A DNA stretch of 16,164 bases, from UHGV virus genome UHGV-0142489; one strand, 5' to 3'. A program made the translations under genes and the position numbers. The notes below the pieces were generated by a model. It searched no databases, was not told where the DNA came from, and saw nothing but the letters and a program-made list of their open reading frames with translations. The DNA is from a virus. This document shows, in pieces, positions 1,001-16,164 of this stretch. Every line of letters starts with the position of its first letter. Position 1 is the stretch's first letter.

Positions 1001-1042
1001 CGGCGGCGGCACAGGGATGTGCCTTTAAATAATTCTGTACGA

Positions 1043-1101: not shown

Positions 1102-1111
1102 AGGAGGAGAT

Positions 1112-1321: not shown

Positions 1322-2184
1322 TGTTGTTAGCTCTTCTAATTATCCCCATTCTGGTTAGTGGTTATATTATGATAACCGCTAACCAGTATCATTATTTCCG
1401 TTTATACCGACATGAAGGCCAGCTTCTTTATATGAAAGTAGCTGCATTAGGTACATATTGCCTTGTTGCTTCGGTAATAATTGCCGCATTTATAAAATAT
1501 AAATATCCTGATTTTCACCTAGTTCACGATATGGTGGAAACTTTTAATGTAACGTCAAAACCAGAAACAGATAGAATTTACATGTGGCTACTTCTTCTGT
1601 CAGTCACATCAATTTGCTTCTCTTTGTGTTATGTATCTTTTGTTTGGCTAAAAGATCTTCTTTTAGGTTGTTTTTATAAACGTGATATTTATGACAAAAT
1701 ATCAGAGGCAATGAAAGCTAGGGTATTGCGAAAAACGTACTCCCAGGGTTCTTTAGATTTGCTATTGCTTGATGCAATCGAATCAGATCCTAAGAAACCA
1801 ATGTTAATTACTTTATCATCAAATAAAGTATACGTTGGAATAATAAATGGTTCTGGTGAGCCAACGGAAAATCAAGGGCCACACCAACACATATCTTTTG
1901 TTCCTTTAATGTCAGGGTACAGAAACAAAGAAAATTTATCTGTTACATTTACAAACGCTTACCCAGGTGAAATCCAAATTAAGCGCAGTGCTGCGATAAA
2001 AGGGATAAGCAAAAAGAAAGTTCAAGGTCTAGAAATTATGGTATCTATAGACGAAATAAGTCATATATCATGGTTTGACTTTGAAGTATATAAGGCAACA
2101 AATAACAAAGTAGAAACAAAGGGGCATGTTGTTAATGTGACCAAAAATGGTCGCAACATATACTACAGAAGTGGCAGGAAATAA
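1321..2184 (+). CDS. Hypothetical membrane protein, 287 aa: three N-terminal TM helices plus ~175-aa cytoplasmic domain of unknown function
   Basis: GTG start at 1321 with AAGGA (1312-1316) upstream. Hydrophobic segments LLALLIIPILVSGYIMI, VAALGTYCLVASVIIAAFI and MWLLLLSVTSICFSLCYVSFVWL, followed by a basic stretch (KDLLLGCFYKRDIYDK), which by the positive-inside rule places the C-terminal domain in the cytoplasm. AT-rich (38 G+C in 1321-1420, hand count). An alternative start at ATG 1366 would delete the first helix. Confidence 0.7.
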   Translation: MLLALLIIPILVSGYIMITANQYHYFRLYRHEGQLLYMKVAALGTYCLVASVIIAAFIKYKYPDFHLVHDMVETFNVTSKPETDRIYMWLLLLSVTSICFSLCYVSFVWLKDLLLGCFYKRDIYDKISEAMKARVLRKTYSQGSLDLLLLDAIESDPKKPMLITLSSNKVYVGIINGSGEPTENQGPHQHISFVPLMSGYRNKENLSVTFTNAYPGEIQIKRSAAIKGISKKKVQGLEIMVSIDEISHISWFDFEVYKATNNKVETKGHVVNVTKNGRNIYYRSGRK

Positions 2185-2209
2185 ATTTTACGCAGTTTAG
2201 GTGGCTTAT

Positions 2210-2713
2210 ATGGATAATACTATCTTAGGCGCATTGATAGGTGCAGTTATTGCTATAGTTTCCACTTATATAAATGCAAGACAAGGATACAAAAACAGCA
2301 TAAGATTAGAGCGACAAAAAATATTAAGGGATAAACGCGAGCAATTATTTATAAATTGTATACTTGCTGAAAAAGTCATAAATTCAAGCGCAATTACCAT
2401 TCTCAATTTTGTAAAAAATGCCAGATACCACTCTGATAGTAAATTTGACGTATCAAGAGCGAATCCGTTGCAAACGATGGAAATGCTAATAAACATATAC
2501 CTTCCTGAGTATAAAAAAGAATTACAAGAACTCAATAATGCGTATCAAGAATTTCACAAATACTACTCTCAATATACATGTGCACATACCTTCAAAAATA
2601 TGCCTGATAATGAGAAGTCGAAGTTTATTGAGGAGGCTGATTTTTATGCAAAAAAGATATATGGCAAACTTAATGATATTAAGGACAAGATATCATTTAA
2701 CTCAATAGTATAA
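2210..2713 (+). CDS. Hypothetical membrane-anchored protein, 167 aa: single N-terminal TM helix plus helical K/E/N/Y-rich cytoplasmic domain
   Basis: ORF-track frame 2201..2713 begins at a GTG that is part of the AGGTGG Shine-Dalgarno (2199-2204); the in-frame ATG at 2210 sits 5 nt downstream and is the likelier start. TM segment ILGALIGAVIAIVSTYI followed by basic NARQGYKNSIRLERQKILRDKREQ. Very AT-rich (34 G+C in 2221-2320, hand count). Confidence 0.7.
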   Translation: MDNTILGALIGAVIAIVSTYINARQGYKNSIRLERQKILRDKREQLFINCILAEKVINSSAITILNFVKNARYHSDSKFDVSRANPLQTMEMLINIYLPEYKKELQELNNAYQEFHKYYSQYTCAHTFKNMPDNEKSKFIEEADFYAKKIYGKLNDIKDKISFNSIV

Positions 2714-2788: not shown

Positions 2789-2815
2789 TTAAAAACAAGG
2801 CCGCGAAAGCGGCCT
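2789..2815 (-). terminator. Intrinsic terminator closing the minus-strand virion operon
   Basis: Perfect 7-bp GC-rich stem AGGCCGC/GCGGCCT with GAAA tetraloop (plus-strand 2798-2815). On the minus strand the hairpin is followed directly by TGTTTTTAAC. It lies 9 nt downstream of the TGA stop of the 98-aa gene (2824-2826). Confidence 0.65.
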
Positions 2816-2823: not shown

Positions 2824-3120
2824 TCACGTTCCTTTTCTGAATGATAGCCGTTCGAAAAATGATGACATTCCACCGCAGACAATAGCAAAGATGATCCCAC
2901 CAAAGAAGAGAAGGCCAGCCTGCCACCACTCCCACCGCCATACATCCACAGCACCAACCATACCAACAATCGCTCCAACAAATGGAATATAGCTCACGAT
3001 GAAAGCAATGGGGGCTGCAATTATCCAGTGCAATCCCCACCATGATTCAAGCCCAGCCATAATTGCTGCCAACTGAAAAAGGCCAACGACGATATAAACA
3101 ATGAATCCTATCGCTTGCAT
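2824..3120 (-). CDS. Small integral membrane protein, 98 aa, three TM helices (holin-like topology or exclusion/immunity protein)
   Basis: ATG at 3120 with AGGTGA Shine-Dalgarno. Three hydrophobic helices separated by Trp-rich loops (ESWWGLHW, DVWRWEWWQ) and a short basic C-terminal tail (ERLSFRKGT). Last gene before the operon terminator. The two overlapping alternative-frame ORFs in the track were not chosen. Confidence 0.7.
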   Translation of the reverse strand: MQAIGFIVYIVVGLFQLAAIMAGLESWWGLHWIIAAPIAFIVSYIPFVGAIVGMVGAVDVWRWEWWQAGLLFFGGIIFAIVCGGMSSFFERLSFRKGT

Positions 3121-3132: not shown

Positions 3133-3306
3133 TTACCCAGTAAAAATCAGAGGCCTCCCCTCAATAAGGCTTGCAACAAGAACTATTCCCTGCACAACAA
3201 AGATGAACCAGCAAATAGCTTGAGTCTGAGGGTTAAGAAAATATTTGTAGCGGTCAATAAATAACAACCCACCAGAAATTATCACACTCAAAATAATTAA
3301 AAACAC
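3133..3306 (-). CDS. Possible small two-TM membrane protein, 57 aa (not in the supplied ORF track)
   Basis: My own translation of the minus strand: GTG at 3306-3304 preceded by AAGGAAG, reading (M)FLIILSVIISGGLLFIDRYKYFLNPQTQAICWFIFVVQGIVLVASLIEGRPLIFTG and ending at TAA 3135-3133. No ATG is present in the frame, and AT-rich DNA gives hydrophobic codons by chance, so confidence is low. Confidence 0.3.
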   Translation of the reverse strand: MFLIILSVIISGGLLFIDRYKYFLNPQTQAICWFIFVVQGIVLVASLIEGRPLIFTG

Positions 3307-3315
3307 AACACTTCC

Positions 3316-5790
3316 TTATTGCGGAGTGACATCCTGAGGTCGCCACCAGTATGTCTGATTAAACTCTTTCTTCGAACGTTGCTCCATTTTACGCAAATAG
3401 CCTGGTGAAAAATACTCCTGCATCTGGTTAAAGATCATATGATCGAGAGCCGCCTTTAAGTACCAGAGATTCGCACCTGGCATCAAACCTTTCCCCAGCT
3501 TCACCAGATCACCACCAGTCTGCTCACTCTTCCCTTCCACAGCATTTAACGGTATGCCCTGAGCAATCTTCACTACGTCATCAACCAGACCAGCTACCGG
3601 GCCAAGCATCGACGCCAGCGCGCCGCTTCCGTACCTAGTGTGATCTGACAATAAAAAGTCACCGTAAAGGCCAAGGCCACCACCTTTCAGTAGAGCACCA
3701 AGCCAGAATTTTGCGGCACCTTCTCCTGTCATCTCTCGAGGATTACGACCAGACGCAAGGTCGTTAAGTTGCTGCGACAAAGCGCCAAGAATGGTCGTAC
3801 TGGCAATAAACGTCGCAATATATGCCGCACGCCCACCAGCAGACGGCATACCCATAGCGCGTGACCAGTGACGCATAACAACCGAGATAGGGAACGATTT
3901 AAACAGGAAAACACTTCTCGTTAATTCACCTTTCCATGTTCCACGCTGAATACCAGAACCGGTTATCAGTTGCTCACGTGCTCCCGGTGTAATAATAGCC
4001 ATATCAACTTCTTCAGTTACGGCACCGAGCAGTTTACGCATTGCCTCAAATTTCACTCGTTCAGGCTCACCAAGATGTTTAACTGCTGAATCAGGGATAC
4101 GCATAATGCTTTCCGGTGTCAGCATCGTATTATTACCGTTCCCCCAGTCCTCCTGTTGCGCCAGCTTCCATACGTTCCAGTCTGTGTCAGTAATCCCTTT
4201 GCTTTTCAGGATACGAAAATCAGAGTCATCGAGGCTACGAAGGTCTGGTGTCCGTGACACTACTTCTCCCAGGCTTCCCATCATGGTTACGCCATAGGCG
4301 CGCTTGTGCGCATCTGACCATGCTGTAAGCCCACTGGCACGCATTACGGCCGTTGCCGCCCAACGAGACACTGACGGCCCCATATTATCCATCGCCCAGC
4401 GGTTAACGCTGCCAAGTAGAGATTCCATCGCCAGACCAGCGCGGCGCGCCCGCGCAAGTTCTGTACGGTTCGTTGGGTCCATAGCTTCAAGCTGGTTGCG
4501 GAATAACTGGTTCATTGGAAGGTTGGTAACCTTCGCAGACAGATACATGGTTCCAAGATCAGAGAACGATGACAGCAACGCGGATCCGAGTCTGCTGGCA
4601 ACCAGCCAGTTGCGGATATTGTCAGACCATCGCGCGATGTGCGGATTCGCTACAGGCTGTGTCTTTCCAGAAATAAAGTTGTACAGATTCTCTGTGTTGT
4701 TCGCCAGCCGCTCGACTTTACCGGTTTTACTCGGGTTAGCTGTTGCCGTTTCTGCCTTAACCTGATCAAGAAGAGAGCGGAAAACATGATCGGGGTTTGG
4801 GCCATATGTTTCCACCAGCGCAATATCTTTACTGATACCTTCCAGGTGACCGACCATGATTTCCCATAGAGAGCGATCGCCATAAAGTTGCTGATATTGC
4901 AGATAGGAATCTGCATCTTTGAAATGTATCTGTCGTGATGCATTACCACGGTTAGCACGCACGCCGGAAATTCGCATTCCGGTATCAGTAAGCTTATTCA
5001 GCCCACCAGTAGCGATCGTGTTATAAGCCTCTCCAAGAAATGCAGACAACTCGGCATCGTTCATCAGTTGCCCATCGGCTCGGGTATAATATTTGCGATC
5101 CAGCTTACCTATAACATCGCTAACCCATTTATCTTTTGATACCGCCCCAACCTTTTCCATAGAATGATGTTGAGGGATCCCCCAGTTTTCGAGATAGCCA
5201 ATGTCCCCACCAGCATCATTAAACCGGCGGCGCAGTAGATCTGTCACTTCTCTCCACGCCTTAGCACCTTTTCTTGCTTTAGCATTGCCAGTATTTTGCC
5301 CTCGCATTTCATATACCAGGTCACGCACGCCCGCTTCATCTTCAAACAGACTAAAAAAGCGAGGATCAACTGCTTCGAATGCCTCCTGCAATCGACTCAA
5401 TGCATAATCACGGGTGGCTTTTGTTCTGGATTCAACAGAGAGGAAATTCGATTTACCGTCTGCATTAAAAGCAATAGTACGGTTAAGAGCGCCAAGTTTC
5501 CCATCAGCCCCTTGATAGCTATTGATAAATTTATCCAATCTCTGACGTGCGGCTATAGTGAGGGCCACACGACGTTTCTTTAATGCCGCTTCTCGCTGTA
5601 ATTCTTCAGATGCCAATTGTGCTGCTCGATATAGCCGCTCTGATTCGGAAAGTTGTCGCCACGAGATCGGGTCATCACGAGCAATGGAGCGCATATTTCG
5701 ATAAATGCGGTCTTCAATGTTCTGTATTTCTCGCGCCGTTAAAGTGCGCTGCGCCGCCTGCTGGACCGCTTGTATACATTCCTGTCTCAT
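3316..5790 (-). CDS. Large internal virion / ejection protein, 824 aa
   Basis: ATG at 5790, 5 nt after the stop of the upstream gene. Long, largely helical-looking protein with hydrophobic stretches near the C-terminus (AAYIATFIASTTILGAL, GAAKFWLGALLKGGGLGLYGDFLL). Its position after the tail tubular genes matches the internal core/ejection proteins of T7-type podoviruses. No tail-fibre-like repeats. Confidence 0.75.
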   Translation of the reverse strand: MRQECIQAVQQAAQRTLTAREIQNIEDRIYRNMRSIARDDPISWRQLSESERLYRAAQLASEELQREAALKKRRVALTIAARQRLDKFINSYQGADGKLGALNRTIAFNADGKSNFLSVESRTKATRDYALSRLQEAFEAVDPRFFSLFEDEAGVRDLVYEMRGQNTGNAKARKGAKAWREVTDLLRRRFNDAGGDIGYLENWGIPQHHSMEKVGAVSKDKWVSDVIGKLDRKYYTRADGQLMNDAELSAFLGEAYNTIATGGLNKLTDTGMRISGVRANRGNASRQIHFKDADSYLQYQQLYGDRSLWEIMVGHLEGISKDIALVETYGPNPDHVFRSLLDQVKAETATANPSKTGKVERLANNTENLYNFISGKTQPVANPHIARWSDNIRNWLVASRLGSALLSSFSDLGTMYLSAKVTNLPMNQLFRNQLEAMDPTNRTELARARRAGLAMESLLGSVNRWAMDNMGPSVSRWAATAVMRASGLTAWSDAHKRAYGVTMMGSLGEVVSRTPDLRSLDDSDFRILKSKGITDTDWNVWKLAQQEDWGNGNNTMLTPESIMRIPDSAVKHLGEPERVKFEAMRKLLGAVTEEVDMAIITPGAREQLITGSGIQRGTWKGELTRSVFLFKSFPISVVMRHWSRAMGMPSAGGRAAYIATFIASTTILGALSQQLNDLASGRNPREMTGEGAAKFWLGALLKGGGLGLYGDFLLSDHTRYGSGALASMLGPVAGLVDDVVKIAQGIPLNAVEGKSEQTGGDLVKLGKGLMPGANLWYLKAALDHMIFNQMQEYFSPGYLRKMEQRSKKEFNQTYWWRPQDVTPQ

Positions 5791-5795
5791 TTAAT

Positions 5796-7598
5796 TTAAC
5801 CTCTCAAGAAACACGCCACAGCGACATCAAACAGGCTGGAATCCTGTATTGCCTGCTCACTTTCCCTGTTCGCTTCATCCAGTACTTCACGCGCACTGCG
5901 CGATTGTGGATTACCATCATCATCCAGCACGGTGATTATCATGTCAGGTGATTCAAGCAGCGAGTCTTCAGCTATGCGCAGATCAATATCTCCTGCCTTA
6001 TCTGACATCATTTTTTGTTCTGCCTGTTGCAATATTTTATCAGGCTCAAAAGGAGCTACTTCGTCTGGCGTCCTGACCTCTGCTGTTTTATAGAATGAAA
6101 CAGCCTGAGCATTAAGTTCACTTTCTGCCTGCTGTCTCCGAGCCAGTTCTGCTCGAGCTTCAAAAAGCTGACCGCCAGGCTCGTGCGGTGCCAACGCGTT
6201 ACGGGAAAATTCCAGGCGTTCTTGTGCCTGCCGGATTCGTTGATCAATATCGCGAAGTCTGGCCTGTTTATCTGATCGAGCACGAGACAAAGCTTTACCG
6301 CTACCGGTTGGCTCTTCTGCAAGAATTTGTGCACGCTGTTCAGTGAGATTTTCAATAATTCGTTGGCTATTAGCGATTTCAGACTGGTAAACCTGTCTAT
6401 CTCCACGCGGCAAAAGCTGCGCGGCCTGTTCTTCAAGCAACCGATTTTCTATAGCACGCGCCGTTACTCCATCATCTACAGATGACAGAGCCTCATTAAC
6501 TGCCTGAGACAGCAGACTCTTGCGCCCAGGAATTTCACTGAAAGATGCAGACTCAACAATGCTGGCAACGTCTACAGGTCTCCCCTGGCTAACATCAGAC
6601 ATAGCTTTTCGCAGAGCCTGAATGTGAGAATTGCGCGAAAGCACGTTGATCGGCACGCCGGGCGCAATATCAATTTCAGCATGATGAGCGGCATTCGCCG
6701 CCAGTGCAGCATCGATATCAACTGGTGAAAAATTTGGTGCGTTTGTAGACTCGCCGCGAGAGTTAATAAATCTGCCGACACCACCAAACGCCACCCCAAG
6801 AACAGCATCAATAGCAATTGCCTGTCGATCCAACACATCATACTGGTTAGCCATTTCGCTATAGCCACCATCACGAAGTGTTTTTGCAGTAAGCCCACGC
6901 TGTGCCATACCGAACGCAATATTTGTACCTGCGGCATAGGCAATATCTGGCGTTGCACGTACTGCTGTTGCTGCGGCGCGTCGCACTGAACTCTCACCCG
7001 TCCGCGCAAGCTGAGCCGCCACACCTTCCGCCAGCGCACCACCAGCACGTAACCCGAGGCTCATAGGGATCAGTGTTCCGGCACCAGCAGTAATGCCCTG
7101 CACTAATCCCGCTTCCTGCGCCGTCCTGAAATCAACACCCTGTGCTGTCAGCCGTTCAAACTCAGAAAAACCCTGTAGCGAAGTTACCGCCGCCGCACCT
7201 CCGACAGGACCACCGAGCGTTGTACCGACAACAGCCTGCCCGCCCATATCGAACAACCCATAAAGAACCTGCCCGGCGGTTCCGGTTGTCGCGGCATCAG
7301 GCGTCAGCCGCTTAACCTGCTGCTCTGCTAGTTTTCTCTGCTCGGCAATGTATGAAACTGAAGTATCATTGAGCGAGGTGTTTTCGTTAATAAACTGAGC
7401 AATCGGGGATACGATTTTATCCATCCCTGCCCATAGCAACTGATCTGGCTTTGCCACCAGCCCGGAGTACAAACCAGACAATGCCGCTCCTACAGCATTG
7501 TCGAAAAAACCAACATCGCTGTTAAAGCCCGCTGGATTTGATGCTGCTTCGTCAAGTTGCTGATTCTGGTTTACTGGATTAAGGCCAAAGTAACTCAT
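5796..7598 (-). CDS. Internal virion protein, 600 aa, with Gly/Ala-rich N-terminal third
   Basis: ATG at 7598 overlaps the TGA of the upstream gene (ATGA, 4-nt overlap). Gly/Ala-rich low-complexity segments (GTTLGGPVGGAAAVTSL, GITAGAGTLIPMSLGLRAGGALAEGVAAQLARTG) followed by a charged, coiled-coil-like C-terminal half. Confidence 0.75.
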   Translation of the reverse strand: MSYFGLNPVNQNQQLDEAASNPAGFNSDVGFFDNAVGAALSGLYSGLVAKPDQLLWAGMDKIVSPIAQFINENTSLNDTSVSYIAEQRKLAEQQVKRLTPDAATTGTAGQVLYGLFDMGGQAVVGTTLGGPVGGAAAVTSLQGFSEFERLTAQGVDFRTAQEAGLVQGITAGAGTLIPMSLGLRAGGALAEGVAAQLARTGESSVRRAAATAVRATPDIAYAAGTNIAFGMAQRGLTAKTLRDGGYSEMANQYDVLDRQAIAIDAVLGVAFGGVGRFINSRGESTNAPNFSPVDIDAALAANAAHHAEIDIAPGVPINVLSRNSHIQALRKAMSDVSQGRPVDVASIVESASFSEIPGRKSLLSQAVNEALSSVDDGVTARAIENRLLEEQAAQLLPRGDRQVYQSEIANSQRIIENLTEQRAQILAEEPTGSGKALSRARSDKQARLRDIDQRIRQAQERLEFSRNALAPHEPGGQLFEARAELARRQQAESELNAQAVSFYKTAEVRTPDEVAPFEPDKILQQAEQKMMSDKAGDIDLRIAEDSLLESPDMIITVLDDDGNPQSRSAREVLDEANRESEQAIQDSSLFDVAVACFLRG

Positions 7599-10108
7599 TG
7601 CGGAATATCTCCGGAGAATCTCTGACGCTTCTGTGTCAGATCAAGAACAACAGGAGAACCATCATCTTTCAGCAGATAACCAGTACCAAGTTTCACCAGG
7701 TACTGACTATCGCCGTAACTTTGCAAACCATACTGACCAGGCGGTGTTTTTATCCCGGTGCCGACCACTTGTTCATTCCAAGCCTGATTAACCTGCTTAT
7801 CGAATTGCTCTGCAGACATTCCCCACGGCAAAAGGACATTCCCCATTCCGTTATAGTCATGCACGCCACCTGTAGCTACGTTAACAGCCTGCTTCCAGAT
7901 ATCAGTGTCAATTTCGCCTGATATCACGCCTTTTTTCGCCATCACACCAGCGTAATAGTCCTTTGCGATCTCGTATGCCATTGATGCCCCCTGAGCATCA
8001 CCAGCAAATGCATCCTTCACCATGTCAGAAAACTCAAGGCGAAGATCAGCATCTTTAGGCATCGGAATACCTTTCGCATCATCAGTACCTTTACGAGCCG
8101 CCGCGCCAGTAAGAATTGTCTGCGCAGCGGTTTCAGGAGACACGGAAACATCCGGATTAAACCAGTTTTTTTCTGCCAAAATACCACCAGGCTTGTCCAT
8201 CAGTATCCCGGCAACGGCAGCAGATGGAGCGTTGGCACTGATCTGCTGTAGTGCTGACATATACACCTGCCCACCACCAGTGCTCTGCCTGATGGTATCG
8301 AGATATGCTGCCTGTTGGGAAACTGGAGCATCACGAAAGAAAACACCGATCTGATTGGCCTCGTCTTTGGAAAAGAACGTCAGTGGAGTGCCATATGACT
8401 TAGCAAGGTCACTGACCTGAGCAGCACGCAAGGCAACGCTCTGTCCAAAGTTATCCTTATTGCTCATGTCGATAGGCTTTGCCTGTCCGGCGGCAAGAGA
8501 GAACTGTACAGGATCAGCCTGTCGCTGCTTTATCACCTGACTTGCAGCCGACACAACGTTGTCATAAAGAGCGGCTCGTGCCGCATAACCCTCCCCTGTC
8601 TCACCAGTATCCGGGCGTAATTGCTCAACATATGCTGTAATGCTGCTTGTCGGCATGTTGCGGAAAGAGCCTATATACTGTCCGGCGATTTGCGTATTTC
8701 TGAACTCGGTATATCGCAGGTTTCCTTCTCTGACTCCATAAGCTGCAATAAAATCAGCCTCACCAGGTGGGTTAGGAAATTCAACGCCCCGCATATACGC
8801 AGCTGTCGCATCGCGAACCTTGCTGTCAATCATCGTTTTATATTCAGCCTGCTGCTGCCGACGCAGTTGATCCGCCTGTCGCATAAAACTTGCCTGCGCC
8901 TCAGGAGATGCCGCATCGAATGCTGCATTACCGGTATAGCGTTTGGTGTTGGTTGGAATTGTTGATAAACCAAGTGCTGCACTGACACCAGCAGTTAACT
9001 GCTGATCACTGTATGGCTGGCTACCGTTCTCATGATGGATAATGGCTGCACAAAGCGCCTTCAGGGTATCAGGATTTGATGCATCGAGAGGCTCATCAGC
9101 AGAAACGCCAAGTTGTTCGCACACTGCTTTGATATACGACATAGTGTCATTTTTATCAGTAGGCGGTGCCCAGCGATTAATTATCTCGCTGACGGTATCA
9201 ATACCCTGCCGCTGATACGACATCAGGTTCCGCCCTAATGCACGAATCCCGTGTTCAGGTGTTTCGAATTTAGCAAATCTACCATCATCACCGGTCTGGC
9301 CTACCCACGGATTAGTTTTGCTGTATTCGAGATTTCCGGGGTTATTGTTGCGTATGCCACGGACACGCTCGGAAGAGCCACTATCTGTTACAGCACGGCG
9401 AGCTCCAGCAGCAGTATCACTTAACTCGCCATTACTTTGGATGAATGCGGTCGCATTGTTTGCCGACCACTGGGACAATGCTGCATCAGCAACCTTCTCT
9501 TTAAACTCGATTTTCTTGGTCTGTATTTGCTCGTCGCTCCAGCCATGTGCAGCACCGTACTCCTCAATTTGCTGGAAAGTTTGCTTATTAGCCAATACGT
9601 ATGCGGCATTGTCGCCATACAATGCTGCGGCATTTTTACCATTGTTCAGCAGCGTCGCCTGAAACTGACCTTCTTCGTAGGCATTAATTTGCCCTATCTC
9701 GTGCCGCCCGGCCTGCGTAGTGAACTGAATGCGCTGCTGCTGCGCCTGCTGCATGAAAGCATTACGAGCCTGTTCATCCGGCAGCGACATAGCCAGTTGT
9801 TCGACCTGAGCATCAAACTGCTGCGTATACTCATGGCCTTTTCCAATAGCATTTTTCCCTTTCAGGTTAAGCAAACCTGTTTCAGGGTTATTCAGCAGAT
9901 CACTGCTTATCTGACTGAGGTTAAGAGATGCCTCCTGAGCCAGAGCGATATTGGCACGCTGTTTTGCCTGCCCCAAAACATCAATTGCCTCTGTCCCTGC
10001 CCGAACAAAAGCATCACCAATACCTGGCTGAGAAAACGTCTGCAAGCCTGCTGACTGAACTCCACGGCTCTCAACCTGGCGTCCGGATACTGTTGGTACG
10101 ACTGGCAT
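7595..10108 (-). CDS. Large internal virion protein, 837 aa
   Basis: ORF-track frame 7595..10183 trimmed to the ATG at 10108, which has GGAGG 6 nt upstream and overlaps the TAA of the upstream gene by 1 nt (TAATG). The longer form would overlap the upstream gene by 76 nt. Contains a conserved-looking block GIRNNNPGNLEYSKTNPWVGQTGDDGRFAKFETPEHGIRALGRNL (residues ~250-295). Confidence 0.75.
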   Translation of the reverse strand: MPVVPTVSGRQVESRGVQSAGLQTFSQPGIGDAFVRAGTEAIDVLGQAKQRANIALAQEASLNLSQISSDLLNNPETGLLNLKGKNAIGKGHEYTQQFDAQVEQLAMSLPDEQARNAFMQQAQQQRIQFTTQAGRHEIGQINAYEEGQFQATLLNNGKNAAALYGDNAAYVLANKQTFQQIEEYGAAHGWSDEQIQTKKIEFKEKVADAALSQWSANNATAFIQSNGELSDTAAGARRAVTDSGSSERVRGIRNNNPGNLEYSKTNPWVGQTGDDGRFAKFETPEHGIRALGRNLMSYQRQGIDTVSEIINRWAPPTDKNDTMSYIKAVCEQLGVSADEPLDASNPDTLKALCAAIIHHENGSQPYSDQQLTAGVSAALGLSTIPTNTKRYTGNAAFDAASPEAQASFMRQADQLRRQQQAEYKTMIDSKVRDATAAYMRGVEFPNPPGEADFIAAYGVREGNLRYTEFRNTQIAGQYIGSFRNMPTSSITAYVEQLRPDTGETGEGYAARAALYDNVVSAASQVIKQRQADPVQFSLAAGQAKPIDMSNKDNFGQSVALRAAQVSDLAKSYGTPLTFFSKDEANQIGVFFRDAPVSQQAAYLDTIRQSTGGGQVYMSALQQISANAPSAAVAGILMDKPGGILAEKNWFNPDVSVSPETAAQTILTGAAARKGTDDAKGIPMPKDADLRLEFSDMVKDAFAGDAQGASMAYEIAKDYYAGVMAKKGVISGEIDTDIWKQAVNVATGGVHDYNGMGNVLLPWGMSAEQFDKQVNQAWNEQVVGTGIKTPPGQYGLQSYGDSQYLVKLGTGYLLKDDGSPVVLDLTQKRQRFSGDIPQ

Positions 10109-10653
10109 TATAATCCTCCGGGTAATCTGGTTCCTGCTGCTGCCCCGATTGGCGCAGGGGTGCTTTGAGTAAACGGACTCCACGTCCCACCAAACATCTG
10201 GTACGCACCGTATGCCTTCAGAGGCGCAGTGAGCAATGTTGTTGCTGCTCCCACATTCCCCTGTTTACGGGCTGAACTGGCTTCTGCTTTATAGTTGGCA
10301 GCCTGAACCTGATAACCGTAAGCCTCGCGTTGCGCGTTATTCACCGTCGTCAGCGAATCAAGAGCGCCAAACTGAGCAGTGTCACCAAATATATCCAGCG
10401 CGTTACCGGTAGATAAATCAGCGCCGGTAGCCCCCATTGTCGCCGCCTGTGTACCAAGCCGCTGTCGGGTCTCTCTGCGCCGTTGCTCAGCTTCAGCGTT
10501 ACCCCTGTTTATTGCATCATTTGCCTGAGCTGTGGCTATATCTGCGTTCGCTTCTGCAACCTTCGAGGCATACTTTCCCTGTTGGTACTGGGTGTATGCC
10601 TGAATGCCACTCATGGCGAGCATTGCGCCACCAGCAATAACCGGATCGCACAT
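10108..10653 (-). CDS. Internal virion protein, 181 aa
   Basis: ATG at 10653 with GGAGAG upstream, overlapping the TAA of the upstream gene (TAATG). Ala/Gln-rich with a hydrophobic N-terminus (VIAGGAMLAMSGI). Size and position resemble T7 gp14-type core proteins. Confidence 0.7.
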   Translation of the reverse strand: MCDPVIAGGAMLAMSGIQAYTQYQQGKYASKVAEANADIATAQANDAINRGNAEAEQRRRETRQRLGTQAATMGATGADLSTGNALDIFGDTAQFGALDSLTTVNNAQREAYGYQVQAANYKAEASSARKQGNVGAATTLLTAPLKAYGAYQMFGGTWSPFTQSTPAPIGAAAGTRLPGGL

Positions 10654-11117
10654 TATTTTCTCTCCATGTGAAATCTGTGGAAATTAAGACCAAGAGCACC
10701 ATAAGGCGCGGCTTCTTCAAGCCTGAATCCAAGCCAGTGCAGCCATGCTTTGGCAACATGGTTTCGCTCGTCGACATAGTTTTCCAGGCGCGGATAAACT
10801 GCCAGCATCTGCTGCAATACAGGGCGGCAGTGGCGAAGAAATGTCTTCTGATATTTTTCGATACGGCTGGTTCCGACCAGCCAGGGCGTACCATTGCCAC
10901 CGATCATTGACGCCGGAGATACGCCAAACATGGTTACCAGTTCTCCGTTCGCAAATCCTGACCAGGCCATAGTCGCAGTACGCAGACCAACACGCAGCGC
11001 ATCTTCGGTAGTCATCAGCGATACCGCATACAGTTCGTCAATATCAGCCTGACGAACATCCGGCAAAATCATCTGAAGATGCTCTTCGGTAGCGGGAATA
11101 ATTTGAACGTCGATCAT
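10653..11117 (-). CDS. Virion-associated protein, 154 aa (position equivalent to T7 gp13)
   Basis: ATG at 11117 overlapping the TGA of the tail tubular B gene (TGATG). Immediately downstream of the tubular pair, as gene 13 is in T7-type phages. Function not recognisable from the sequence. Confidence 0.65.
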   Translation of the reverse strand: MIDVQIIPATEEHLQMILPDVRQADIDELYAVSLMTTEDALRVGLRTATMAWSGFANGELVTMFGVSPASMIGGNGTPWLVGTSRIEKYQKTFLRHCRPVLQQMLAVYPRLENYVDERNHVAKAWLHWLGFRLEEAAPYGALGLNFHRFHMERK

Positions 11118-13594
11118 CAGAATCCCCCAACAGTAAGGCGAGGAATAACGGCAAGAACAGACAGCGGCAACGGGTCAAGCTGACGGATTTTTACACGTCC
11201 GTTTTTGCCCCAGTTACTGTCCAGTTTCACTTCTACTTTTCCGGTAGCATCATCAACAGGATCATCGTAGAACTCGAATTCACGCTGTGGATATTCGTAC
11301 CATTTACCGCCAGGCGTAGTCGCCCAGATGCCGCGACTGGCGTTGACCACTAGTGTCACGGTATTGATCAGCTGTTTCTTATCGAGCAGCGTCTCCTGCC
11401 CGTTAATATTGATGTCCAGGGTTTCAAACTGGGCGTTAATCGGCAGTCCGATGTGGACCACGGCGCCGGGTTTCTCCAGCGTAACGGCGCCGCCGGTGAC
11501 GACTTTCTGCGGCTCTACGCTGGCGTCAGACAGTACATTCACGGTCTGTCCTTCGAGGTGATCGAGTCCGGCGAATGTCTGGCGGGCCATGTACCAGTTA
11601 GTGGTGGCGGTATTGCGCAGGGCAGGAGGAATATTCCGGTTGGCTGTGACGGTTACCGAGTTGCCGCTTTCAACCGAAATAATGTCGCAGCGCAGCTGCA
11701 TGGCAACGGCGCTACCATCTTCAGGATCGGTTCCTGTGTAGGGGAACTGGATCTGTGCGCCGACGTCTCCTGCGGTAAAATAGCTGGCCCCGCTCATCGT
11801 CAGGGTATACGGCACCTGATAACTCCAGTCCCCGCTTCCACCGGTTATAGTCGCCGCCCGGCTGCCGGTGTTGCGTCCGTCATAGGTCAGTCCGCTGTCG
11901 ACAAAGAAAGCGTCAAGGTCATCGGTGAACTGGCGGCTTGCCAGCCTCTCGATATAGCGTTTCGTCTGGCCGTTGATAGTGCGGTTAACCACGAAATAGA
12001 TCGCATCCTCGCTGCCTTCACTGATACCGCAAGTGCTCTCATATTTCCCGGCGCTGGATTGCGGAGACCAGGCGAAAACCTGCTGATCGCGCAGATAGGT
12101 CAGCACCAGCAATTTTCCATCATCACGCACGCAGAACGCGCTGGAGAACGGGACAATACAAAACGCCCAGTCGACAATGCTGCGCTTCTGGAAAAGGTGA
12201 TTAGCAAGGATTGTCAGGTCGTTGCCCTGGAATCCATCCACATCAAACGAGTAGGCCAGATCCCGCACGACGCTGCCCTTCTCCTGGATAAAGAGCGCGA
12301 TATTCGAAACTGCGATAGGTGGGACATCGCTGCAGCCGTTTGAGCCCTGAGAACTCAGGGAGAATGCAGAAGGCGTAAGCACTTTATTCTGGTCACCGGT
12401 CACAACAAACTCACCGCCGGAGGTCAGAACAACCAGCGATCCAACATCGATAAGGTGGCGAATTTCGTTAACCTGCCGGCCAGCGTAGGTATAAACGATC
12501 CTGTCATCGTCCTGCGTCGGGTTACTCTTGCCGAAGTCTTTATAGTCACCGGTACGGCTGGCCCAGATGGTTTGCGGATAGGCAGGGGATGCAGCGAAGT
12601 ACAGCCTCTGCTGGTAGTAGACGACCGTCGCCGGATAGCCATTGACGCTGTTCCACGCATAGCGTGCCCACTTGTAGCTGGCCTTGTCAGCCCCGACAAC
12701 GTTCTCAGGGATACGAGAAACCACATCAGCGGTTGCAGTCAGGCCGTCACCGGCGACGGCAGTGATCCGCACAATGCCAAAACCACTATGCAGGTATTCC
12801 CACTGCACGCCTGTATCATCATCGCCGGTTCCGCCCCAGCCATCCCACGCCATACCTTCGGTGTGTGATGGGCGTAACGTCCCGGTTTTTCCTTCGGTAT
12901 TGGCGCGATAGTAGTTGCTGTCGGCGCGCCGGATATCCTCGATCGATGTGCTCTTGCTGGTTTCCCATACTGGTACAGAGTCAACGGCTGGCTGCTCGAG
13001 GTAGAACAGCTTTCCGACCTGCTCGGCGCCGAATATTGCAGAGCTCGAGGTCAGAGTGATTGTGCCAGTAGTGGCGCTGGCCCAGACAGTTTTGGACTCG
13101 TCGACATTGATATCTTCAAACGGGCCGTTAGTTGTCTGCACATCGACGATCTGCCAGTTGTCATGCGCATACCGGCGCAATTCTTTAGGCGGATAGGACG
13201 GGTGCACGATCGTCATCACATCGGCGCTTTGGGTGAATTTCAGGCCGAAAACATCATTTTCTGTATAAGGTGTCGCCAGCTCGTAGATTACATTGCCGGT
13301 GGTCAGCACCAGGCCGCCGTCTTTGATGACGCGCATGTAATTGTGGCCAAACTCCAGCGCATAGGTCTGCACCGTCGAAAACTGGAAAGGGATAAGGCGG
13401 CATTTGCGATCCGGGTATTTCGCCGCGGCGATGAACTGCGTGCCCGGGCGGTTCTCTACCCCGCCATACTGCCGCACGATAAAGTTATCGCACTTGCGCA
13501 GCGCCACCTGGTACTTGGCCATATCGATGCGGCCATAGAGCGATGGAGCAATTTCTCCACCTGAGAAGCTCGGTTGTATCCAGCTAACAGCCAT
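11117..13594 (-). CDS. Tail tubular protein B (T7 gp12-like), ~825 aa
   Basis: The N-terminus (SWIQPSFSGGEIAPSLYGRID ... GGVENRPG) follows the pattern I remember for T7 gp12, and the size is close to gp12 (~800 aa). It follows the tubular protein A gene directly. Start set at ATG 13594 (1-nt TGATG overlap with the upstream stop); the track's GTG at 13600 is the alternative. Confidence 0.8.
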   Translation of the reverse strand: MAVSWIQPSFSGGEIAPSLYGRIDMAKYQVALRKCDNFIVRQYGGVENRPGTQFIAAAKYPDRKCRLIPFQFSTVQTYALEFGHNYMRVIKDGGLVLTTGNVIYELATPYTENDVFGLKFTQSADVMTIVHPSYPPKELRRYAHDNWQIVDVQTTNGPFEDINVDESKTVWASATTGTITLTSSSAIFGAEQVGKLFYLEQPAVDSVPVWETSKSTSIEDIRRADSNYYRANTEGKTGTLRPSHTEGMAWDGWGGTGDDDTGVQWEYLHSGFGIVRITAVAGDGLTATADVVSRIPENVVGADKASYKWARYAWNSVNGYPATVVYYQQRLYFAASPAYPQTIWASRTGDYKDFGKSNPTQDDDRIVYTYAGRQVNEIRHLIDVGSLVVLTSGGEFVVTGDQNKVLTPSAFSLSSQGSNGCSDVPPIAVSNIALFIQEKGSVVRDLAYSFDVDGFQGNDLTILANHLFQKRSIVDWAFCIVPFSSAFCVRDDGKLLVLTYLRDQQVFAWSPQSSAGKYESTCGISEGSEDAIYFVVNRTINGQTKRYIERLASRQFTDDLDAFFVDSGLTYDGRNTGSRAATITGGSGDWSYQVPYTLTMSGASYFTAGDVGAQIQFPYTGTDPEDGSAVAMQLRCDIISVESGNSVTVTANRNIPPALRNTATTNWYMARQTFAGLDHLEGQTVNVLSDASVEPQKVVTGGAVTLEKPGAVVHIGLPINAQFETLDININGQETLLDKKQLINTVTLVVNASRGIWATTPGGKWYEYPQREFEFYDDPVDDATGKVEVKLDSNWGKNGRVKIRQLDPLPLSVLAVIPRLTVGGF

Positions 13595-14199
13595 CAGCAC
13601 ATCCTCGCTACGGTAAACGGATCGTCAGGCATTTGCGGTTCCTGCGATTCGTTCATGCTGTGAGAGCCAGCGCTGAGGATGATCCGGCTATACATGCTCA
13701 GGGCATTATTGCCAAGGTCGGCATTACCCGTGAGAACCATGTTAATAGCCGCGGCCAGGCGCCAGGATAGAGCCTCCTGGAAGATGGAATCGAACATGTT
13801 CACGTCGGTGATGCGGGCAACATACCGAAGCCAGGCCTGCGGCAGATCGGTGTAAATCAGGCGCCCCGTGCCGGCGCTGTCCGCGCCGACCACGTACTGC
13901 ACGCGCATAGCAGCCGTCGGATACCGTACGCCAGGCAGCGGGATCTCAATAATACGGAGGCAGTCAGTGGGATAGGTATACGCATAATCCCAGTCCTGCG
14001 GCGGGTTATTGGTGTCAGCCAGCGCGATATTCTTGGTCGCAAAATTCCAGTCAAAATCGGCCAGGACAGCATCACGAATCGACTCGTAATACAGGGAGCA
14101 TTGCCCGGCTTCTTTGCTGGCTTCCTCCAGGCTGTTGATGCTCCGGTTATTACCGATGTTGCTCAGCGCCCGGTTGCAGATCTCAATGACAGAGGCCAT
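13594..14199 (-). CDS. Tail tubular protein A (T7 gp11-like), 201 aa
   Basis: Size ~200 aa; N-terminal ICNRALSNIG...SINSLEE, a central DFDWNF block and C-terminal EALSWRLAAAIN parallel the T7 gp11 pattern as I remember it. Lies immediately upstream of tubular protein B. ATG at 14199 overlaps the upstream TAA (TAATG). Confidence 0.8.
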   Translation of the reverse strand: MASVIEICNRALSNIGNNRSINSLEEASKEAGQCSLYYESIRDAVLADFDWNFATKNIALADTNNPPQDWDYAYTYPTDCLRIIEIPLPGVRYPTAAMRVQYVVGADSAGTGRLIYTDLPQAWLRYVARITDVNMFDSIFQEALSWRLAAAINMVLTGNADLGNNALSMYSRIILSAGSHSMNESQEPQMPDDPFTVARMC

Positions 14200-14522
14200 T
14201 ACTCGCCCCCTTCACCGTAAAGCGTCTGCGCCGCCGTCTTCGGTGCCTCACCTGAAACAGGTGCCAGCGCCATATCGGTGATTTGCAGATCCGCGCTGCG
14301 GAAAGTGCCATCGTCGCCTTCACGCGCCGAAATACCCTTAATCACTGCTTTTGCGGTGATCATCACCTCAGTGCCTACATTCTGTGGCTGCGCTTTCAGC
14401 TTGTTCAGGGTGTCATTGTTCAGCGTGATGCACAGCCCCCACGGATATTCGTCGCGGGTTTTGGTCTGGCCGCTTTCATCCTGGTAGCTGTCGGTGCCGG
14501 TTTTGAGATTGACCATTTCCAT
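14199..14522 (-). CDS. Hypothetical small virion protein, 107 aa
   Basis: ATG at 14522 with GGAG 6 nt upstream. First gene after the inter-module hairpin and translationally coupled to the tubular A gene. Acidic and hydrophilic. Confidence 0.65.
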   Translation of the reverse strand: MEMVNLKTGTDSYQDESGQTKTRDEYPWGLCITLNNDTLNKLKAQPQNVGTEVMITAKAVIKGISAREGDDGTFRSADLQITDMALAPVSGEAPKTAAQTLYGEGGE

Positions 14523-14530
14523 AGAACGCT

Positions 14531-14557
14531 CCTACAAGAAAGGGGCCGAAGCCCCCT
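14531..14557 (-). terminator. Candidate partial intrinsic terminator / RNA-stabilising hairpin between head and tail gene blocks
   Basis: GC stem GGGGC/GCCCC with CGAA loop (plus-strand 14542-14555). On the minus strand it is followed by TTTCTTGT, and it sits between the stop of the 113-aa gene (14573) and the ribosome-binding site of the 107-aa gene. Comparable in position to terminator T-phi after the capsid gene in T7. Confidence 0.45.
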
Positions 14558-14572
14558 GGTTTATTCTGAGGC

Positions 14573-14914
14573 TCAGACGCCTAAATCTTTTCGCTTTTCG
14601 TCGATCTTCTCGCGCAGCGTTTCGGCTTTGGTGTTGTGATGCGGCTTCTCGTTAAAGAGCAACTCGTACTCTTCGCGGAGCTTATCCAGCTCGTCATCGC
14701 CACCACCGCCTTCGTTCAGCGGCTCAGGTTTAACAACAGCAGGAGCCACAACCTTTTGCGTTGCCTTCGCCTTTGCTTCCTTCGCCGCTTCGTTCAGCGG
14801 CTCCAGCGCCGAGCCAGGCACCCCGTCATACTCAATCTCTGAACCCTCCGGCCAGAGGTTGTTATGGATATGGGACAGACGCAGCACGCGGTATTTTGCT
14901 TTTTCAGCTGACAT
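14573..14914 (-). CDS. Hypothetical charged protein, 113 aa (K/E-rich with a GGGG linker)
   Basis: ATG at 14914 with a strong AAGGAG 5 nt upstream. Highly charged low-complexity C-terminal half (EAAKEAKAKATQK ... NEGGGGDDELDKLREEYE ... REKIDEKRKDLGV). Located in the head gene block. Confidence 0.7.
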   Translation of the reverse strand: MSAEKAKYRVLRLSHIHNNLWPEGSEIEYDGVPGSALEPLNEAAKEAKAKATQKVVAPAVVKPEPLNEGGGGDDELDKLREEYELLFNEKPHHNTKAETLREKIDEKRKDLGV

Positions 14915-14924
14915 CGATATCTCC

Positions 14925-15368
14925 TTAGCCGGTCACTTTAGAGCGGGTCGGGTACAGGGTATTCGCATCAACGTCCAGGTTGATACCGGAGGTGAACGCG
15001 CCAGCAGTCAGCGGGCCGGTGGCTACGGAGTAGTTCACACGCAGATAGCGCTGAACGCCCGCCGGTACCTTCGCCGACACAACGCGCTTACCAGCTTTAA
15101 GCGCTGCCAGAGCCAGGGGGCCGCTGTCATAAATGGTCGTCCAGGTGCTGTTGTCAGGACTGGTCTGCAACTGCACGTTGACGGTAGCGGCGCCAGCAGC
15201 GGTAGCCGTGGTGTTAACGAGAGCCCAGAACTCCAGCGGATAACCAACGCCGATATCACGGCGGGTGCCGTCGACAGGCGCCAGGTCAATCACATCGGTA
15301 GAAGCAGCAGTAGCCGTAACCGCCTGCGCTTCGGAGAACATCAACAGTTTGTCGAGGATCATCTTCAT
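14925..15368 (-). CDS. Small beta-rich virion protein, 147 aa (possible capsid decoration / cement protein)
   Basis: Directly downstream of the capsid gene. Thr/Ala/Val/Gly-rich composition typical of beta-sandwich head accessory proteins. GGAG lies only 2 nt from the ATG at 15368, so the ATG at 15362 may be the real start. Confidence 0.65.
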   Translation of the reverse strand: MKMILDKLLMFSEAQAVTATAASTDVIDLAPVDGTRRDIGVGYPLEFWALVNTTATAAGAATVNVQLQTSPDNSTWTTIYDSGPLALAALKAGKRVVSAKVPAGVQRYLRVNYSVATGPLTAGAFTSGINLDVDANTLYPTRSKVTG

Positions 15369-15415
15369 TTCTCCATTTAGCAGCCCGTTACCGGGCCGCT
15401 GGTTATAGTCAGGGG

Positions 15416-16164
15416 TTAAACCACGCGAGCTTCAGTTTCCAGAAGCGCATCGGTTTCGCGAATCGGAACGCCGCGGAAACTGGTCCACCAATCGCCTTCA
15501 GTCTCTTTGACGCTAATCGCCAGAGAGGATTTCTCCAGAGATTGCAGATCAAGAGCCTGGGCAACAGTGCGGTTCATGTAGAACACCGGGCGCCCCATGC
15601 CACGGTTAGGGATGCGATGCAGCGCTTTCACCATGAGCTTGGCGATGTTTGCTGCCGCAGCAGGATCGGACAGGTCGCTGATATCGATGTTCGCGATGCG
15701 GACAACGTAGCGCCAGTCGCGCAGGCACAGGCCGTTATCCCACTTATAGTGGGTGCGGTAGCCTTCATACTGGCCGCCGCTGGCATCTTTCAGAGTCTGC
15801 TGGCCTTTATCTTCCATCTGCAGACCTGCTTTCTGGCCTTTCGGGAAGATACCGTGAACGGTGTTTTCGCCCCATACAATGAGCCAGATTGAAGTGTTAT
15901 CGGTGCCAGTACCGCCGGCGTCGATAATGTTTTGCGCGTTGGTAGCCGTCAGGTCGGAGTAGCGAGAAGACAGGCCCATGAACTGCTGCGGGTTAACGCT
16001 GGAGTCGCCATAAAAAAGCGTTTGAGCCATCTGCTGATTCATCGCCTCGAGGAAAGCGCGATCTTCTGACAGCCGAAATTCAGCGGTATTTCCGTTCAGA
16101 TCTGCCAGAGATTTATCAATCTCCGCATAGGTTTCCAGCATGCCAATGCCATCGGTAACCTGCA
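15416..16164 (-). CDS. Probable major capsid protein, C-terminal ~249 aa (5' end lies beyond the window)
   Basis: The open frame runs to the window edge without a credible start; the M at 16141 in the track is internal. It is the first gene of the head-tail block and has a composition consistent with an HK97-fold coat protein. The call rests on position and general character only. Confidence 0.6.
   Translation of the reverse strand, partial: QVTDGIGMLETYAEIDKSLADLNGNTAEFRLSEDRAFLEAMNQQMAQTLFYGDSSVNPQQFMGLSSRYSDLTATNAQNIIDAGGTGTDNTSIWLIVWGENTVHGIFPKGQKAGLQMEDKGQQTLKDASGGQYEGYRTHYKWDNGLCLRDWRYVVRIANIDISDLSDPAAAANIAKLMVKALHRIPNRGMGRPVFYMNRTVAQALDLQSLEKSSLAISVKETEGDWWTSFRGVPIRETDALLETEARVV

Follow-up and report, generated by a model that had tools for sequence, protein, structure and literature searches.

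The temperate podoviruses epsilon15 (NC_004775) and phiV10 (NC_007804), both of which have annotated integrase and attachment features, provide the closest described counterparts of the locus analyzed here. In epsilon15, an ordered internal core is located above the portal, and a tubular channel density has been observed by tomography during infection (review PMC5850374). The tail of Legionella phage LME-1 (9EFK) includes a dodecameric adaptor (12 copies) and a hexameric nozzle (6 copies); according to the LME-1 paper, it 'closely resembles' the tail of T7 despite having no sequence similarity to T7, and Carin-1 has the nearest tail structure. Here we describe the tail and core genes on the minus strand between positions 3316 and 14199 of a stretch of 16,164 nucleotides (nt) from the virus genome UHGV-0142489 (the entire stretch is hereafter called the window). 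Most probably, this region is an intact tail-hub and internal-core (DNA-ejection) operon of a temperate podovirus of the epsilon15/phiV10 type (Uetakevirus) that is integrated in an enterobacterial chromosome. The arrangement with three large proteins, which a preliminary description of this DNA took for a departure from the gp15/gp16 norm of T7-like phages, is the standard, long-described gp11-gp17 layout of epsilon15 and phiV10 and is ordinary for this family. The three proteins are orthologs of epsilon15 gp15, gp16 and gp17, and the layout has therefore been on record since these genomes were published.

Gene content and identity of the operon

According to the list of open reading frames (ORFs), the minus strand of the window from 2,790 to 16,164 is a single long structural operon. 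Between 3316 and 14199, it contains seven intact, translationally coupled genes encoding proteins of 201, 825, 154, 181, 837, 600 and 824 amino acids (aa); the ORFs, sizes and minus-strand order given in the preliminary description were all found in place. The seven genes and the one recognizable enzymatic domain are as follows.

13594..14199, minus strand: 201-aa tail adaptor ('connector') in the tubular-A position, orthologous to epsilon15 gp11 and phiV10 p14; phrog_394, E = 1.6e-80
11117..13594, minus strand: tail nozzle (tubular-B position), 825 aa; ortholog of epsilon15 gp12; phrog_376, E = 0
10653..11117, minus strand: gp13-like internal virion or assembly protein, 154 aa; phrog_308, E = 9e-63
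10108..10653, minus strand: gp14-like core protein of 181 aa, predicted to form a pore in the outer membrane; Pfam PF24072 T7_gp14
7595..10108, minus strand: first large core protein, 837 aa from ATG; ortholog of epsilon15 gp15; phrog_992, E = 0
8915..9364, minus strand: lytic transglycosylase domain, residues ~249-398 of the 837-aa protein; PDB and hhalign matches
5796..7598, minus strand: 600-aa middle large protein, orthologous to epsilon15 gp16; phrog_1145, E = 0
3316..5790, minus strand: 824-aa third large core protein, orthologous to epsilon15 gp17; phrog_684, E = 0

All seven proteins match PHROG families from end to end (E values from about 1e-63 to 0) and have the same lengths as their phiV10 orthologs in BLASTP comparisons; because of these full-length matches and equal lengths, the seven ORFs are judged to be real genes rather than chance ORFs. 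A stop/start overlap (TAATG, TGATG or ATGA) is present at every junction from the gp10-like staple gene through the 600-aa gene, with TGATG at the adaptor/nozzle junction, and the gap between the 600-aa and 824-aa genes is only 5 nt.

Full-length orthology, protein by protein, extends over phiV10 p14-p20 and epsilon15 gp11-gp17, and the staple protein p13 of phiV10 has a match as well (BLASTP). From the gp13-like protein onward, the aa identity to phiV10 is 97-100% (97.5-100% for the gp13- to gp17-like proteins). Collinear full-length orthologs of epsilon15 gp10 through gp17 are thus present, and a GP7-type capsid protein, a Bbp16-type cement protein and the gp10 staple are encoded directly upstream of the tail genes, which assigns the locus to the epsilon15/phiV10 type. 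At the nucleotide level, phiV10 and its close relatives are 92.7% identical to the region across 97% of its length (megablast); more distant relatives include Enterobacter phage Tyrion, Salmonella phages SPN1S and 66FD, and epsilon15. In a set of 5426 complete Escherichia coli genomes, matches to part of the window occur in 1050, and at least 239 carry at least 80% of it; the E. coli copies (E275a, PCN033, A0 34/86) are prophages adjoining yfgI. The phiV10/epsilon15 orthology bears out the earlier proposal that the module is that of a temperate podovirus and combines genes for an internal core with a tail whose adaptor and nozzle are T7-style. As a finding, the region itself matters little, being readily recognizable as a textbook epsilon15/phiV10-type operon that is present in several hundred complete E. 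coli genomes.

The tail hub and the small core proteins

The adaptor shares 76-79% aa identity with its orthologs in epsilon15 and phiV10 (BLASTP) and matches the 'Connector Protein' chain of PDB 8ck1_E (E = 4.4e-25, 32% identity). The nozzle matches the 'Tail Nozzle' chain 8ck1_A (E = 4.6e-211), with 44% identity to Carin-1 gp36, and is 85% identical to epsilon15 gp12 and 42% identical to BPP-1 Bbp13. Entry 8CK1 was identified as the tail of Cobetia phage Carin-1 (PQ119497) by chain length: the chains are exactly as long as the proteins annotated in this phage as 'tail nozzle' (830 aa) and as 'connector protein' (222 aa). The adaptor and nozzle of LME-1 are matched too (orf18, E = 1.5e-17; orf17, E = 1.3e-5). 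The nozzle ORF as called comprises 827 aa from a GTG at 13600; the orthologs use the ATG at 13594, two codons downstream, which yields 825 aa. The suggested tubular A/B pair is thus upheld by profile matches to solved T7-like adaptors and nozzles, those of Carin-1 and LME-1; direct homology to the T7 proteins themselves was not detected (see below).

Directly after the nozzle gene come homologs of T7 gp13 and gp14, as in a T7-type core. T7 gp13 belongs to the same phrog_308 (E = 1e-42) as the 154-aa protein, which aligns with it at an hhalign probability of 66% and is 51% identical to Carin-1 gp35. The 181-aa protein scores 31.2 bits against the Pfam family T7_gp14 (cut-off 27) and 80% against the T7 gp14 family profile (hhalign, E = 1.4e-5). 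Both it and T7 gp14 begin with 'MC' followed by an Ala/Gly-rich N-terminus and end with an 'APIxAAxGT' C-terminus, and the E. coli ortholog is named 'virion core protein, T7 gp14 family' at NCBI. Sequence and profile searches of the PDB with the gp14-like family gave no specific structural match.

The three large proteins

The 837-aa protein is 98% identical to phiV10 p18 and 59% identical to epsilon15 gp15, and its N-terminal half is homologous at the profile level to BPP-1 Bbp11 (98%) and Carin-1 gp33 (E = 2e-42). Its transglycosylase domain matches residues 3-146 of Gp29 (PDB 9vvp_L, E = 4.8e-38), an endolysin (7q47, E = 3e-17) and residues 13-146 of the T7 gp16 family (hhalign 95%, E = 1.8e-8). 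A transglycosylase is thus present on a core protein, as in T7, but on the first large protein and not on the last. In sequence and profile searches of the PDB with the gp15-like family, only this domain was matched.

The 824-aa protein (98.5% identical to phiV10 p20, 28% to epsilon15 gp17) is likely, although not proven, to be distantly related to the C-terminal body of T7 gp16. This grading was chosen because a chain of PHROG matches stands beside weak direct hhalign matches and a negative PDB profile search. The chain runs through relatives of the phage that encode only two large proteins: the gp17-like family aligns with the second of these over ~450 columns (hhalign 98.6%), and the second proteins match phrog_342 (E from 1e-156 to 8.5e-235) at profile positions 192-1227, that is, the entire profile minus the transglycosylase domain, with T7 gp16 itself matching phrog_342 at E = 0. 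Compared directly with the T7 gp16 family, the gp17-like family reaches 8% in hhalign, and matches to T7 gp16 of 12-19% with the family profile and 37% with the single sequence are weak but collinear; the A2L family is collinear with the T7 gp16 family across ~450 columns. No PDB match was obtained for the 824-aa family by sequence or profile search.

The 600-aa protein is 97.5% identical to phiV10 p19 and 32% identical to epsilon15 gp16. It is predicted to be all-helical, with long helices (AlphaFold2 model, mean predicted local distance difference test, pLDDT, 79), and no Pfam domain was found in it. The family is large, with 1337 representative clusters at E <= 1e-3, and consists of a conserved N-terminal module (~1-390) and a conserved C-terminal module (~550-600, '...AVACFLRG'), between which the window protein has ~160 residues of helices without a recognized effector domain. 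Homolog searches with the 600-aa protein and with the gp17-like profile yielded only near-identical copies in E. coli (99-100%) or copies in Klebsiella (86-87%).

Variation in the number of large proteins and mosaicism

For comparison, 80 related viral loci from IMG/VR were anchored on the nozzle (nozzle identity 61-99%). The gp13/gp14-like pair is followed by three large genes in 50 of these loci (about 835-980, 520-636 and 708-928 aa) and by two (about 900-1030 and 937-1157 aa), with the middle gene absent, in 23; the remaining 7 have a truncated or irregular layout. Across the three-gene and two-gene loci, the first large proteins all belong to one family, and the third protein of the former clusters with the second protein of the latter. 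The middle gene comes in two mutually non-matching sequence types, one of ~600 aa, found in the window and in epsilon15, and the other of ~565 aa, found in other loci; the 565-aa type has a weak match (E = 8e-9) to phrog_342, in the part that follows the transglycosylase. In BPP-1 and Carin-1, the distal place is occupied by a single giant protein (2052-2854 aa) without detectable similarity to the 600-aa or the 824-aa protein. The proposed BPP-1-like analogue nevertheless turned out to be a true relative (31% identity for the adaptor, 42% for the nozzle and 32% for the gp14-like protein), its first large protein being homologous at the profile level and the distal pair of the window having no detectable similarity to its giant.

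Judging from these comparisons, the operon appears to consist of a conserved proximal block (adaptor, nozzle, gp13-like, gp14-like and transglycosylase proteins) followed by hypervariable, exchangeable distal core genes. The functions of T7 gp16 are probably spread across separate genes, with the middle gene as an extra that can be exchanged, and the presence of three large proteins is the normal state of this family rather than a sign of decay. Such wholesale swapping of the distal core genes, which may be two genes, one gene or one giant gene, is relevant to the modeling of podovirus ejectosomes and to the engineering of phages for host range or therapy.

Several loci in the IMG/VR set, among them L015, L029, L056, L062 and L076, encode a nozzle of 84% identity together with a single phrog_342 protein of ~940-1160 aa (the T7 gp16 family, without the transglycosylase), which replaces the 600-aa and 824-aa pair. 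In L074 and L019, the first large gene is broken into several ORFs, and these loci may be decayed copies. The idea that the 600-aa and 824-aa proteins represent a split of one long protein was considered and rejected for the middle-gene type of the window: hidden Markov models of the gp17-like families match neither the C-terminal regions of long phrog_1145 members nor Carin-1 gp32 or BPP-1 Bbp10. For the 565-aa middle type, such a split is weakly suggested.

By its pattern of nucleotide identity, the window itself is a mosaic. The nozzle gene contains a recombination breakpoint near its 3' end, at ~11,200-11,500. Left of this point (window positions 3,300-11,300), nucleotide identity to phiV10 and E. 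coli E275a is 97-99%; to the right (nozzle, adaptor, staple, cement and capsid genes), it is 65-83%, and the sequence matches another set of loci. In the IMG/VR loci L006-L010, L071 and L084, the adaptor/nozzle type of the window is combined with other core-gene types.

A possible carrier role of the middle protein

The N-terminal module (1-390) of the 600-aa protein aligns with the N-termini of phage proteins of 1100-2125 aa. Some relatives (P0269, P0253 and P0201) carry ART-PolyVal and ddrB-ParB domains, and BFVD matches of the 600-aa protein bear names such as DdrB-like or 'large polyvalent protein associated domain'. At the other end, a motif of the form 'A[VI]xC[FA]LR' terminates all 22 of the 22 longest members among those listed; a stricter regular expression for the C-terminus is matched by 77 of 127 members of at least 420 aa and by none of 2773 control windows. 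In two proteins of the representative library, P0264 and P0268, the transglycosylase domain that the window has on its 837-aa protein is joined without intervening modules to the N-terminal module of the 600-aa family, and domains therefore shuffle between neighboring core genes.

Polyvalent phage proteins are predicted to be packaged and then injected with the DNA (Iyer et al., 2017, PMC5512222). The 600-aa protein has in common with them the carrier modules (N-terminal ~390 aa and C-terminal ~40 aa), but does not have the two or more disparate effector domains by which such proteins are defined. It is conceivable, although we consider it rather doubtful, that the 600-aa protein (phrog_1145) is a minimal 'carrier' for virion-delivered cargo and not a fixed part of the ejection channel, with its ends (the C-terminal one closing in ...AVxC[F/A]LRG) serving packaging and passage through the nozzle and its insert being injected ahead of the DNA. 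The inserts in relatives may be ADP-ribosyltransferase, ParB-like, transglycosylase-like or Bbp10-like segments, with little inserted in the window protein. If this were so, the polymorphism between three and two large proteins (50 versus 23 loci) would reflect gain, loss or swap of an accessory injected protein. The 600-aa family is a candidate delivery scaffold for injected effectors, and both phiV10 and epsilon15 are amenable to genetic work.

Proposed mechanism and alternative explanations

Under the interpretation of the operon as a tail hub with an internal ejection core, the adaptor and nozzle would build a short tail hub under the portal, presumably in the oligomeric states suggested by the solved homologs from LME-1 and Carin-1, and the gp13-like protein would assist in assembly. 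Above the portal, the gp14-like protein would be packaged together with the three large proteins into an ordered core, to be expelled through the nozzle before the DNA. The gp14-like protein could then form a pore in the outer membrane, the 837-aa protein would cut peptidoglycan by means of its transglycosylase domain, and the 600-aa and 824-aa proteins would complete a trans-envelope conduit, the latter in the role of the T7 gp16 body. The tailspike would be encoded downstream, in the usual position but displaced by the inserted Bro-N/moron island described below. Orthology, intactness, domain content and gene order are established by the sequence comparisons; oligomeric states, internal location, ejection and the part played by each of the large proteins are inferred.

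Several observations weigh against this interpretation. In hhalign comparisons with family profiles on both sides, the adaptor and nozzle reach a probability below 1% against T7 gp11 and gp12, and they belong to different PHROGs (394 and 376 versus 446 and 457). This missing sequence signal agrees with the report on LME-1 of a T7-like structure without sequence similarity; in a single record, the RefSeq note for epsilon15 (NC_004775), an HHpred match of gp11 to T7 tail tubular protein A (3j4b) is given. A counterpart of T7 gp15 was not found: the families A15, A16a, A16b, A17 and A2L all score below 1% against the T7 gp15 profile in hhalign, there is no phrog_1339 match among the window proteins, and PDB searches gave no T7 gp15 match either. 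The link between the gp17-like protein and T7 gp16 consists of the PHROG chain and weak hhalign matches (8-37%), a combined profile failed to retrieve T7 gp16 from the PDB, and the AlphaFold2 model of the 824-aa protein comes from a shallow alignment and has a pLDDT of 40. The 600-aa protein has no specific structural match in the PDB by sequence or by fold. No tailspike gene of this prophage is present in the sequence read, its position being suggested by relatives. The label 'T7-type' given in the preliminary description accordingly holds for fold and gene order and, in sequence, for gp13, gp14 and the transglycosylase, but not for gp11, gp12 and gp15, and the body of gp16 is matched only weakly when compared directly.

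A different architecture, the main rival, has been proposed for epsilon15 itself from older genetic work. As related in the portion of PMC12391199 that deals with Guichard et al. (2013), gp15, gp16 and gp17 were read as parts of an external tail tube, which also counts against an internal core, and the packaging/injection device was described as consisting of gp4, gp20, gp15 and gp17/16, with a hexameric tail hub on the portal. Transferred to the present locus, this model would place the gp15 and gp17 orthologs (837 and 824 aa) outside the capsid as the central tube or hub of the adsorption apparatus, with the gp16 ortholog (600 aa) in a helping role. Amber mutants in genes 15-17 reportedly gave particles lacking these proteins in a dependent order, an observation that we counted in favor of such a tube, but dependent incorporation would be equally expected of a stacked internal core. 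Moreover, an adaptor and a nozzle are already part of the operon, and their homologs make up the whole hub in the Carin-1 and LME-1 structures; the 837-aa protein bears a peptidoglycan-cutting domain typical of ejected core proteins; homologs of gp13 and gp14 come before the large genes, as they do in T7; the long helices predicted throughout the middle protein are like those of the T7 core proteins; and gp17 is assigned to the internal core in the review PMC5850374. The external-tube model is weakened because bona fide adaptor and nozzle homologs are present, and we consider it improbable. In Table 1 of PMC8954989, 'Epsilon 15 gp11 (229 aa), gp12 (499 aa), gp13 (708 aa)' are listed as gp14-, gp15- and gp16-like, unlike NC_004775, where gp11, gp12 and gp13 have 201, 825 and 154 aa (adaptor, nozzle and gp13-like protein). 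The tabulated sizes look P22-like, and the conclusions drawn there on epsilon15 ejection proteins are probably not about epsilon15.

Two further explanations concern the nature of the large genes. They could be frameshift fragments of a single gp16-like gene in a decaying prophage, considering that features of T7 gp16 are spread over the genes, with the transglycosylase on the first and similarity to the C-terminal body on the third, and that the 565-aa middle type of relatives has the weak post-transglycosylase match to phrog_342 mentioned above. However, the three genes are separate and intact: each has its own coupled start codon and is full-length, with sizes as in the viable phages phiV10 and epsilon15; the identical 600-aa protein is found on hundreds of contigs, intact orthologs of the 824-aa protein are abundant in Klebsiella, the three-gene layout recurs in 50 of the 80 related loci, and the 600-aa protein belongs to a separate family, phrog_1145, rather than being a fragment of gp16. 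Given this conservation, the coupled starts and the viable phages with the same genes, decay by frameshift can be excluded for practical purposes and is the least probable of the explanations considered. Alternatively, one of the large proteins could be the receptor-binding protein, so that no separate fiber gene would be needed, given that the window contains no fiber or spike gene. This is very unlikely as well: none of the three matches tail-fiber, tailspike or depolymerase families in PHROG or Pfam, the middle protein is predicted to be helical rather than a beta-helix, and every inspected relative encodes a separate large tail protein or tailspike downstream. The N-terminus of the downstream tail protein of phiV10 resembles that of epsilon15 gp20, and one such protein in PCN033 is annotated as GH28-related.

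Flanking genes, accessory island and the receptor-binding gene

The genes upstream of the adaptor, the end of the operon and the island beyond it comprise the following features.

15416-16141 and beyond, cut by the right end of the window, minus strand: major capsid protein, GP7-type; PF20911, E = 1e-111, profile positions 70-313
14925-15368, minus strand: Bbp16-type cement protein; Pfam PF21190, E = 3e-45
between the staple and cement genes (upstream context 14199..16141), minus strand: 113-aa gene
14199-14522, minus strand: capsid staple, gp10-like; Pfam PF21628 Gp10-like, E = 2e-47
3133..3306, minus strand: 57-aa protein with two hydrophobic segments (residues 1-19 and 30-48; Kyte-Doolittle), in the position of epsilon15 gp18 and phiV10 p21
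2824..3120, minus strand: 98-aa protein with three transmembrane-like segments, final gene of the operon; phrog_3075, E = 5e-54; conserved in E. coli prophages
2790..2815, minus strand: intrinsic-terminator-like hairpin with a 7-bp stem (6 GC pairs) and a T-run, at the end of the structural operon (GC-rich hairpin and T-run at 2815-2798); AGGCCGCTTTCGCGGCCT then TGTTTTTAAC
161..2713, plus strand: accessory island in opposite orientation, Bro-N gene and low-GC cassette, separating the core operon from the putative off-window tailspike gene
161-1000, plus strand: Bro-N/anti-repressor-like gene; Pfam Bro-N, E = 8e-20; phrog_130 Ant, E = 2.6e-57
1089-2713, plus strand: low-GC (34-39%) cassette of three genes encoding 69, 287 and 170 aa; phrog_5739, phrog_3630 and phrog_36918

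As noted earlier from the sequence, no fiber or spike gene lies between the 824-aa gene and the terminator, where only the 57-aa and 98-aa genes are found. Both phiV10 p21 and epsilon15 gp18 are small proteins with two transmembrane segments that occupy the same position as the 57-aa protein, and a superinfection-exclusion or membrane role of the 57-aa and 98-aa proteins is conceivable.

The Bro-N gene and the low-GC moron cassette were likewise recognized correctly. As called, the Bro-N ORF (279 aa) is ~45-50 residues longer at the N-terminus than its E. coli orthologs (228-236 aa), and translation therefore probably begins at an internal ATG around 290-315. The cassette proteins (69, 287 and 170 aa) have no match in Pfam, and no gene of the island matches a PADLOC defense system. 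The complete cassette is present in E. coli E275a and its 69-aa and 287-aa genes in A0 34/86; it is absent from phiV10 and PCN033. A gene for a YafO-family toxin is found in or beside the same island in PCN033 and E275a, and the content of the island varies between strains, Bro-N being joined by a YafO toxin pair or by the low-GC cassette of the window. The terminator scan also revealed a perfect hairpin with a 15-bp stem, CTGGTTAGTGGTTAT...ATAACCGCTAACCAG, at 1351-1386 on the plus strand, just inside the start of the 287-aa ORF.

In epsilon15, gp17 is followed by the gene for the small membrane protein gp18 and by a terminator; next come gp19, in the opposite orientation, and the tailspike gp20, which begins ~700 bp after gp17, in a T7-like position. 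The same order is found in phiV10, E275a, PCN033 and A0 34/86, with a variable Bro-N island inserted between the terminator and gp19; a large tail protein (671-875 aa; in PCN033, the one with the GH28-related annotation) is encoded 0.3-2 kb beyond Bro-N in phiV10 and the three E. coli prophages. In these four and in epsilon15, lysis genes and an integrase or attachment site are found after the tailspike. Because the Bro-N ORF of the window begins at position 161, a gp19-like gene and the tailspike gene would, by analogy with these relatives, almost certainly be located just beyond the left edge. The receptor-binding gene, which had been thought to be placed elsewhere, follows the core operon in relatives, in a T7-like position beyond the inserted Bro-N/moron island; its apparent lack reflects the edge of the window and the inserted island and is not a biological oddity.

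Comparison with known systems

The closest counterpart is phiV10 (p14-p21), which has the same genes in the same order and of the same lengths, and likewise has a Bro-N gene after the terminator on the other strand. It differs in the adaptor, the nozzle and the capsid genes to their right (79-84% aa and 65-83% nt identity) and in not possessing the low-GC three-gene cassette of the window. The founding member, epsilon15, shares the order of the seven genes, with large proteins of 842, 634 and 918 aa followed by the small membrane protein and then the terminator; it is temperate, and electron cryo-microscopy has revealed an internal core and six tailspikes in this phage. Identity to epsilon15 falls steeply along the operon (nozzle 85%, gp15 59%, gp16 32%, gp17 28%), and epsilon15 does not carry the Bro-N/moron island.

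Carin-1 and BPP-1 encode, in the same order, an adaptor, a nozzle, gp13-like and gp14-like proteins and a transglycosylase-bearing first large protein, with a Bbp16-type cement protein upstream; in contrast to the window, they have just one giant protein, of 2854 aa (Carin-1) or 2052 aa (BPP-1), in place of the 600-aa and 824-aa pair, and the fiber or spike gene follows directly. The gp11-gp16 block of T7 has the same order of adaptor, nozzle, two small proteins and large core proteins, followed by the fiber. The gp13 proteins belong to the same PHROG and the gp14 proteins to the same Pfam family, the transglycosylase domains are homologous, and the third large protein is, probably, distantly linked to the gp16 body. 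Unlike these components, gp11, gp12 and gp15 have no detectable sequence similarity to proteins of the present operon, and the transglycosylase resides on gp16 in T7 but on the first large protein here. T7 has two large proteins compared with three in this operon, which belongs to a temperate phage with tailspikes rather than T7-type fibers.

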